A DNA stretch of 64,000 nucleotides from an uncultured Acidobacteriota bacterium (GCA_963834025.1 CAWIAI010000008.1:20080-84079), one strand, 5' to 3'. Counted from the first letter of the stretch, positions 19,461 to 19,832 are shown. Notes: generated by a model not told the origin, from the sequence alone. Translations and numbers: made by a program.

Positions 19461-19832
19461 ATTGCATAACAATGCCGGCCCTCCTCGACTCGAGTGGGCT
19501 CTTGTTGATAGGCTCGGGAAGACGGAGCCGGAATTCGGTTCGCACGCGGGACAGCTCGGTACCGGACATGGCGCGCGCACGAAAGCGCCGTCCACTTGAT
19601 AGGGCATCCCGCTCCCTCGCGAGAGGGAGTTCGAAGAACTAATCATGGTCTGAAGTTTATGATCGAAGAGATGTATGGGTCGGACTGAAGCCGACCGCTA
19701 GATTACGAGCGAGCCGAAGTCGTCAAGGCCGAGGAGCAAGACAACTAAAGGGAGCGGAAGAAAAAACTCGTTTAAGTGAGTGGATAAGTCTGCTCAAAAA
19801 GTGTTTTGACAGGGCCGACATTGTTAGAGATG
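19461..19832 (+). mobile_element. Non-autonomous mini-element (372 bp) of the element A family
   Basis: Left end ATTGCA-TAACAATGCCGGC, right end GCCGACATTGTTA-GAGA-TG, TG core on both sides. Transposase absent; bridge-RNA region retained. Confidence 0.9.

Follow-up and report, generated by a model that had tools for sequence, protein, structure and literature searches.

Recombinases guided by bridge RNAs or seekRNAs have been studied as a protein and an RNA carried on one element. Within the IS110 family, RNA of the IS621/ISCro4 type works in trans experimentally (PMC11208160). The IS1111 group is marked by sub-terminal inverted repeats (sTIRs) of 7–17 bp with a 7-bp left extension, and further by a short left end, a long right end and an RNA 3' of the gene (PMC11187229; PMC11208160); in this RNA the top-strand match lies 5' of the bottom-strand match (PMC11187229). 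The circular form of an IS1111-group element has a junction promoter, and Siddiquee et al. found that an ends-only mini-ISEc11 moves when Tnp and seekRNA are supplied in trans (PMC11187229). [quoted passage not shown] Here we compare with these systems a 372-bp mini-element at positions 19461–19832 (+ strand) of a 64,000-nt stretch of DNA from an uncultured Acidobacteriota bacterium (GCA_963834025.1 CAWIAI010000008.1:20080-84079; hereafter the window). The mini-element derives by internal deletion from an insertion sequence (IS) of the IS1111 group (IS110 family) and has lost the recombinase gene. It belongs to a lineage that is real, recently mobile, abundant and widespread, and the new point is that its cargo is the guide RNA itself.

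Anatomy of the mini-element and its RNA domain

The mini-element, assigned to a subfamily M1, was delimited by direct reading of the sequence and by its blastn copies in the genome. A TG core precedes it (19459–19460), and a second TG forms its last two bases (19831–19832). The left end (19461–19481, + strand) consists of the 7-nt extension ATTGCAT and the left sTIR AACAATGCCGGCCC (19468–19481), and it was kept in all mini lineages. The right end (19806–19832, + strand) comprises a −35-like TTGACA (19806–19811), the right sTIR GGGCCGACATTGTT (19812–19825), which has one mismatch to the left one, and the 7-nt extension AGAGATG, made up of AGAGA and the TG core. An earlier note on this DNA had described 372 bp with both sub-terminal inverted repeats and a duplicated TG core, and all of these were recovered base for base. 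The element lies within a doublet resembling repetitive extragenic palindromic (REP) sequences. The left half of this target (19408–19460, + strand) contains the arm AACGCGGTTACCGGA, a spacer and the left target sequence ending in CCACA and the TG core, and the right target flank (19833–19860, + strand) is the REP-like arm TCCGGTAACCCGACTCTCCAGGAGTTG. Comparison of flanks among copies placed this arm outside the element, since its sequence is much more variable from copy to copy than that of the element. An unoccupied paralogous doublet at 57151–57225 (− strand; ...AACCACA-TG-TACGGTAACCCGACT) holds one TG, which fixes the boundaries of the mini-element and shows that no target was duplicated on insertion. 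Insertion without target-site duplication was also apparent from empty CAAG-TT-TCCGATT sites in another genome (G217). The orthologous empty site of the copy at 19461–19832 was not found: the glyoxalase-family gene upstream of it was present in 40 genomes of the genus, with unrelated sequence downstream.

The full-length relative used for comparison, element A (24241–25612, − strand), is 1372 bp long and carries the transposase coding sequence (tnp) at 24476–25531. The 351-amino-acid recombinase matched the Pfam families DEDD_Tnp_IS110 (PF01548, E = 2e-14) and Transposase_20 (PF02371, E = 2e-24) and was homologous to the recombinases of IS621 (E = 2e-10) and ISCro4 (E = 2e-12) by phmmer, a comparison that covered these two. 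The sTIRs of 14 bp, AACAATG(C/T)CGGCCC and GGGCCGACATTGTT, fall within the range of the IS1111 group, and ATTGCAT lies outside the left repeat. In element A the left end is short, with 81 nt preceding the ATG, whereas the right end is long, with approximately 235 nt beyond the stop codon. Its RNA domain starts at 24523, 49 nt before the tnp stop codon; because the stop codon sits in the loop of the cap hairpin described below, the last 49 coding bases of tnp double as RNA. The guide order, with UACCGGACA first and CCACUUG second, places the top-strand match 5' of the bottom-strand match, as in RNAs of the IS1111 type.

When the mini-element is aligned with element A, its missing part begins just after the ribosome-binding site (RBS; GGAGCCG) and ends at the bases immediately preceding TTCGGTTCG, which forms the foot of the RNA closing stem on the 5' side. 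The deletion joint (19524–19542, + strand) thus reads as the RBS remnant GGAGCC, followed by GGAA and TTCGGTTCG, in agreement with the earlier observation that the RBS region is joined directly to sequence just upstream of the first RNA stem. The joint was identical in every mini lineage. Alignments of the mini-element with element A and of minis with each other revealed no convincing microhomology at the deletion endpoints. Because the joint coincides precisely with the closing stem's 5' foot, the whole RNA domain (19534–19718) is retained. The mini-element has no open reading frame (ORF) of the DEDD + Tnp recombinase kind. A coding interpretation of its overlapping short ORFs was rejected, as insertions and deletions between the subfamilies break every frame; because these are not multiples of three, the element has no conserved ORF. 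In element A, the RBS region of tnp, GGAGCCGAA (25531–25545, − strand), repeats the 3' strand of the closing stem, CGAGCCGAA (24340–24352, − strand), and the same repeat is found in the mini-element (19524–19533 and 19709–19718). It is possible, judging from complementarity, that the tnp RBS region pairs with the RNA 5' strand UUCGGUUCG and so links RNA folding to translation.

The bridge/seek RNA domain spans 185 nt (19534–19718, + strand) and is enclosed by the closing stem UUCGGUUCG/CGAGCCGAA. It was defined by folding and by consensus folds of 27 mini and full-length sequences and, separately, of 48 distinct mini RNAs from many genomes (alignment A2). The region 19534–19730 folded with a minimum free energy of −79.8 kcal/mol (z = −3.4 relative to shuffled sequences). 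The target-binding loop (19546–19612, + strand) contains the stems GCGGGA/UCCCGC and GCUC/GGGC, an internal loop with both guides and a cap hairpin (GGCGC..GCGCC), the pairs of which covary (CG/UA/UG) in the consensus folds. Compared with GGCGT/ACGCC in element A, the cap hairpin carries the compensatory change that had been pointed out in the earlier note. The 5' target guide UACCGGA-CA (19560–19568, + strand; TACCGGACA as DNA) is complementary to the top strand TG-TCCGGTA, that is the core and the right flank, and the 3' target guide CCACU-UG (19592–19598, + strand; CCACTTG as DNA) has the same sense as the left flank and core. Both guides had been reported as conserved and were present at these positions. 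The assignment of the guides was confirmed by naturally reprogrammed full-length relatives, whose guides match their own flanks: CGAUU with flank CGATT and CACCCGA with flank TCGGGT in L024, CCUAG with CCTAG and AACCGGA-AA with TT-CCCGGTT in L167, UACCGUA with TACGGT in L037, and a guide core GA with a flank core TC in L039.

The target-binding loop is followed by hairpin 2 (19612–19629, + strand; CUCCCUC-GCGA-GAGGGAG), which has 7 bp and a GNRA loop in the mini-element, as opposed to 6 bp in the full-length copies examined in the same genome. A 7-bp hairpin 2 with a double compensatory change (CUCUCUC/GAGAGAG) occurs behind a truncated tnp in another genome (L090 in G183), and a search for a full-length parent with the mini-type hairpin yielded this truncated copy only; its presence there suggests that the 7-bp form was probably inherited from a full-length ancestor. 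The matches to the hairpin pattern that were inspected in 200 other genomes of the genus were all minis. Next comes a multiloop predicted by the consensus folds (19630–19706, + strand). It contains AAUCAU (19641–19646) and AGAGAUG (19667–19673), which match the predicted circle junction AGAGA-TG-ATTGCAT and are kept in nearly all 48 mini RNAs. We infer that this multiloop is the donor-binding loop; a multiloop of this function is known for IS1111 orthologues (PMC11208160). A scan of positions 19300–28000 against Rfam 15 gave nothing above threshold, and no Rfam family represents the mini RNA. A weak group II intron match (E = 0.21) in a second mini of the window was attributed to chance.

Copies, target sites and distribution

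The genome from which the window derives (G000) has 8.06 Mb in 15 contigs, and the window is located on contig C8. With blastn, approximately 50 contiguous mini copies were found in this genome. When complete elements were counted by pairing each left end with the next right end, there were 48 minis (361–373 bp), 16 plain full-length elements and six full-length elements bearing an insert or intron (22 full-length elements in all); no further size class was present among these 70 complete elements. The earlier note had proposed a genome-wide count and had named a lack of further copies at independent sites among the findings that would speak against its reading; the count decisively showed the opposite. 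Subfamily M1 comprised 18 copies including the one at 19461–19832, with 97.6–100% identity, and subfamily M2 about 27 copies, alongside a few divergent minis; the approximately 30 copies of the M2 type had 86–88% identity. The second mini of the window (27112–27474, − strand; 363 bp) belongs to M2 and has the same joint. Several sets of copies were 100% identical although located at distinct sites: two sets of M2 copies, with seven and five members, and one set of six M1 copies. More than 45 mini copies had unrelated flanks on both sides. A few others shared a repeated flank on one side, and a single pair (C5:366799 and C5:376356) had both flanks in common.

The flanks of mini and full-length copies gave the same logos, in which [C/G]ACTTG precedes the element and TCCGGTAAC follows it. 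The right-flank sequence TCCGGTA was found in 45–50 of 50 minis. The copy at 19461–19832 has CACATG on its left, one mismatch away from its own guide, compared with [C/G]ACTTG in the logo from the 48 minis. The target is one arm junction of the REP-like palindromic doublet, and approximately 21 sites of this form were left unoccupied in the genome. Among approximately 100 AC[AT]TG-T[AC]CGGTA sites in REP-like doublets, approximately 80 were occupied by the IS family of the mini-element, so that the target pool is near saturation. The genome contained at least 20 open genes for recombinases of this family, which had 77–100% amino acid identity to element A. Some minis occurred as pairs separated by 0.8–1.5 kb, often in inverted orientation (C9:762081-763726, C10:21287-23463, C5:365625-367170). 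These close pairs could be composite units or the mark of local hopping.

Beyond this genome, minis with the same joint were detected in six further species when 200 other genomes of the genus were sampled. In a species-representative collection, the exact pattern across the joint occurred in 70 stretches from 34 other assemblies, assigned to Acidobacteriota ("Candidatus Acidiferrales"). The same pattern was found in more than 120 soil metagenome contigs among the matches listed. In genome G183, one mini was found, and the only close recombinase gene is truncated; that mini is probably stranded. A shorter mini of 299 bp (L131), present as a single copy, has an internal deletion reaching from the target loop's 3' half into the donor region; two GATG repeats appear to mark its endpoints.

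Further IS110-family sequences are located in or next to the window. The 3' part of another full-length copy occupies positions 1–879 (+ strand) and forms an 893-nt inverted repeat with 24227–25119. The 5' part of this copy lies before the window and has a group II intron in its start codon. This intron, with an ORF matching RVT_1 and GIIM, is located just before window base 1 (L056:370-2369, corresponding to C8:17669-19668) and interrupts the ATG of the recombinase gene (..GAACA/GTATG...CCTAC/TGATG, with slashes at the insertion points). It was found in at least six IS copies (L056 and five other full-length ones), whose sizes from left end (LE) to right end (RE) were 2681–3447 bp. A second IS110-family recombinase gene, unrelated to that of element A, lies at 14141–15244 (+ strand) and encodes the Pfam domains DEDD_Tnp_IS110 and Transposase_20.

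Source of the recombinase and of the guide RNA

The comparisons of anatomy, copy number, recent spread, target specificity, guide assignment and RNA constraint led us to favour, with a probability of roughly 0.78, the reading that the mini-element is a non-autonomous, MITE-like IS1111 derivative that keeps the ends and the bridge RNA, takes its recombinase from relatives and is guided by its own RNA or by that of a co-resident element. Its size of 361–373 bp, the lack of a transposase gene, the ends shared with element A and the 48 complete copies compared with 22 of the full-length form are those of a MITE-like element. It is set apart from a classical MITE by inverted repeats that are sub-terminal and by insertion without target-site duplication, as in the parent family. 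The earlier description of a MITE-like parasite borrowing a recombinase is well supported by the 48 copies at independent sites, the identical sets and the at least 20 intact-looking recombinase genes. Indirect signs of mobilisation in trans are the identical copies at different sites, the foreign-guide placement in G217 described below and the probably stranded single copy of G183, a genome without an intact close recombinase gene.

In the proposed mechanism, the DEDD recombinase of a full-length relative, loaded with bridge RNA, would cut the mini-element out as a small circle. The joined ends would form a promoter (TTGACA-17-GATGAT) reading through the 73-nt left end into the element's own RNA gene. 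In the modelled circle junction, TTGACA is separated by 17 nt from GATGAT, whereas the integrated copy has GATGTC instead. Circles of IS110 and IS1111 elements form junction promoters that drive RNA and recombinase (PMC12288879; PMC11187229). In the complex of RNA and recombinase, the donor loop would pair with the circle junction AGAGA-TG-ATTGCAT and the target loop with the [C/G]ACT-TG-TCCGGTA of a REP-like doublet; the circle would be inserted without target duplication. Either the mini-element's own RNA or that of any co-resident element sharing its donor loop could be used. If circles form and the mini RNA is transcribed from them, the element's own RNA may raise its rate of transposition. 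A mini-element making its own RNA on excision would need only the protein in trans, and this would explain why the RNA was retained.

Constraint on the RNA was assessed as mean divergence by region over seven mini lineages that differ by 6–17% overall. Divergence was 7.9% in the left end, 9.5% in the right end and 10.2% in the RNA, and it reached 24.7% in the left spacer and 33.1% in the distal spacer. In the mini-only alignment, 98.8% of the cells were paired. Six pairs were changed on both sides, compared with 0.78 ± 0.81 in 500 column shuffles, none of which reached six, although this control ignores the relatedness of the sequences. By these measures, the RNA gene is complete, conserved and marked by compensatory changes in a transposase-less lineage. 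The RNA of M2 minis shared 94.5% identity with that of minis of another species, and its identity to co-resident full-length RNAs did not exceed 89.5%; the RNA region has therefore not simply been overwritten by full-length neighbours in the same genome.

The sites in the genome of the window cannot tell which guide was used, since the guides of minis and those of full-length copies point to one and the same target. Among 115 non-redundant minis, most of the elements' own guides fit the flanks with zero to one mismatch per side, and in four copies with rare variant guides (L119, L139, L196, L220) guides and flanks agreed. Use of the mini's own RNA is plausible on the basis of these matches. 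More informative was G217, in which four minis identical in all 365 internal bases occupy two types of site. Two are at standard sites (CACTTG on the left, T(C/G)CGGTT on the right), and two have C(A/T)AG-TG on the left and TT-TCCGATT on the right, a type of which empty forms (CAAG-TT-TCCGATT) are present in this genome. Compared with the minis' own guides, GCACU-UG and UACCGGA-CA, the second type has two or three mismatches in the last four positions of the left flank and two in the seven positions of the right flank, and it also differs in the core. The second type does match the guides of co-resident full-length elements, CCUAG-UG or CCAAG-UG together with AAUCGGA-AA (AAUCGGAAA). The simplest reading is that the identical mini was placed by the RNAs of different elements, from which it follows that the guide RNA can also be borrowed. 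Alternatively, full-length insertions may have been converted in place, which needs two independent events leaving no trace of the earlier occupant. A full-length element of G217 (L168, contig C12:124509-124797 region) has the guides CCAAGUG and AAUCGGAAA and yet is located at a standard site with CTTG on the left and TCCGGTA on the right; the guide RNA of a neighbour seems to direct autonomous copies as well. The claim that the mini supplies its own guide RNA is therefore partly supported: the RNA gene is complete and conserved, but two of the G217 copies are at sites that fit only foreign guides, and the variant guides gave a mixed picture. Six elements of G217 with a TT core in the empty form of their sites (L172, L173, L167, L169, L174, L175) carried TG where their left end meets the target and TT where the right end does. 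Such different core dinucleotides at the two junctions bear on the position of strand exchange within the core.

Several observations weigh against the reading of a mini-element that uses its own or a co-resident RNA. A scan of the integrated copy found no sigma-70-like promoter and also no terminator. The RE–LE junction of a circle or tandem was absent from the genome's own assembly and from the metagenome contigs. The covariation control carries the limit given above. In recombinant minis (C5:654086-654436 in G000 and L119:2832-3204), the left part and the joint are of the mini type and the RNA tail is that of a full-length subfamily, so that part of the RNA conservation could reflect exchange with full-length copies. 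Finally, some variant guides disagreed with the flanks of their elements (four UGCCGGA copies, L132, L200, L219, L221). As to the recombinant in L119, its reprogrammed guides AAUCGGACA and CCACAUG fit its own flanks, CACATG on the left and TCCGATT on the right.

Three rival explanations were considered. The mini might be a pure hitchhiker that receives both recombinase and RNA from full-length elements, its RNA gene being the useless baggage of one deletion. The two G217 copies at sites fitting only foreign guides would be expected in this case, as would the four copies with UGCCGGA guides at standard TCCGGTA-type sites; a laboratory ends-only mini-IS can move (PMC11187229), and with one joint common to all minis the retention of the RNA could be a historical accident. 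This explanation is difficult to reconcile with an RNA that evolves 2.5–3 times slower than the spacers of the same element across lineages differing by 6–17%, with stems kept by compensatory changes, with mini RNAs that are not homogenised with co-resident full-length RNAs and with the lack of any shorter, RNA-less derivative among the 70 complete elements of the genome. We therefore consider it improbable that the RNA is mere baggage, though this is the most serious of the alternatives. The conserved RNA might instead serve regulation: 48 mini RNA genes, compared with 22 complete full-length copies, could act as decoys that titrate or redirect the recombinase and so damp or steer full-length transposition, with mobility being secondary. 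MITEPpu9 offers a parallel, since it carries a small RNA proposed to modulate tnp translation (PMC12288879). An integrated copy without a recognisable promoter is poorly suited to such a role, and ends as conserved as the RNA, together with identical copies at many sites, point to selection for mobility; a regulatory function as the primary one is very unlikely.

The least credible alternative, to which we give next to no weight, is that the minis are immobile relics, multiplied either by segmental duplication or by recombination with another mini that turned full-length insertions into minis in situ. The pair at C5:366799 and C5:376356 with both flanks in common fits duplication, recombinant minis do exist, and conversion could also account for G217 and L119. 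However, neither flank is related in more than 45 copies, identical sets are found at different sites, and the four G217 minis are identical over 365 internal bases with no trace of a former occupant. The preferred reading, of a mobile mini-element with a borrowed recombinase, can be taken further: minis may be self-guiding, RNA-only transposons in which circularisation switches on the element's own bridge RNA, while the guide RNAs of all co-resident family members, minis and full-length copies, form a common pool. We offer this extended version tentatively and rate it at somewhat less than even odds. If it were true, it would account for the persistence of a working guide RNA in many species of a recombinase-less lineage. 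The mini, or the full-length L168, could then be sent to sites specified by the RNA of another element; this would be the first natural evidence of heterologous bridge-RNA guidance and a route by which a target range can spread through a genome.

Comparison with known systems

Full-text literature searches turned up no natural element described as lacking the recombinase and retaining a complete bridge RNA, and one large survey dropped RNA loci without a flanking recombinase. The nearest natural counterpart is MITEPpu9 with its parent ISPpu9 (IS110 family). Like the mini-element, it is small, has no recombinase gene, has ends resembling those of the IS110 family and is located in REP sequences (PMC12288879). 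It differs in that its RNA, Ssr9, is not a bridge RNA and is dispensable for transposition, and the bridge RNA of ISPpu9 lies upstream of tnp (PMC12288879). The cargo of the mini-element described here is a complete guide RNA. MITEPpu9 has eight copies in KT2440, five of which adjoin tnp (PMC12288879), whereas the mini has 48 copies and occurs in dozens of genomes. For annotation, much of the occupation of REP-like sites in these Acidobacteriota can be ascribed to such repeats of 360–370 bp.

With IS621 and ISCro4 (PMC11208160; PDB 8wt6, 9t56), the present family shares a homologous recombinase and an RNA with target and donor loops that read both strands round a 2-nt core. These two belong to the IS110 group, with the RNA in the left end upstream of tnp, a reversed guide order and short sub-terminal inverted repeats. 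In the present family, by contrast, the RNA lies 3' of tnp, overlaps its last 49 coding nucleotides and has a multiloop donor part. The mini-element is mirrored by IS110 elements of approximately 800 bp that have a recombinase without a 5' untranslated region, whereas the mini has the RNA without the protein; the authors of that study read the split as a sign of bridge RNA acting in trans (bioRxiv 10.64898/2026.08.14.744561). The mini family is likewise a natural split of the two parts, and as a high-copy lineage of RNA and ends found widely in soil it offers a natural system for asking whether bridge RNA prefers to act in cis. G217 adds comparative evidence of a donor steered in nature by the RNA of a different element.

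A further close counterpart is the ISEc11/IS1111 group, with which the family shares the sTIRs, the 7-bp left extension, the absence of target duplication, the 3' non-coding RNA and the order of the matches (PMC11187229). The 48 distinct mini RNAs of alignment A2 and their full-length relatives provide material for the study of this little-studied IS1111-type RNA architecture. The laboratory mini-ISEc11 is man-made and lacks the RNA gene, whereas the mini-element described here is natural, has kept the RNA gene and has lost only the gene for the protein.
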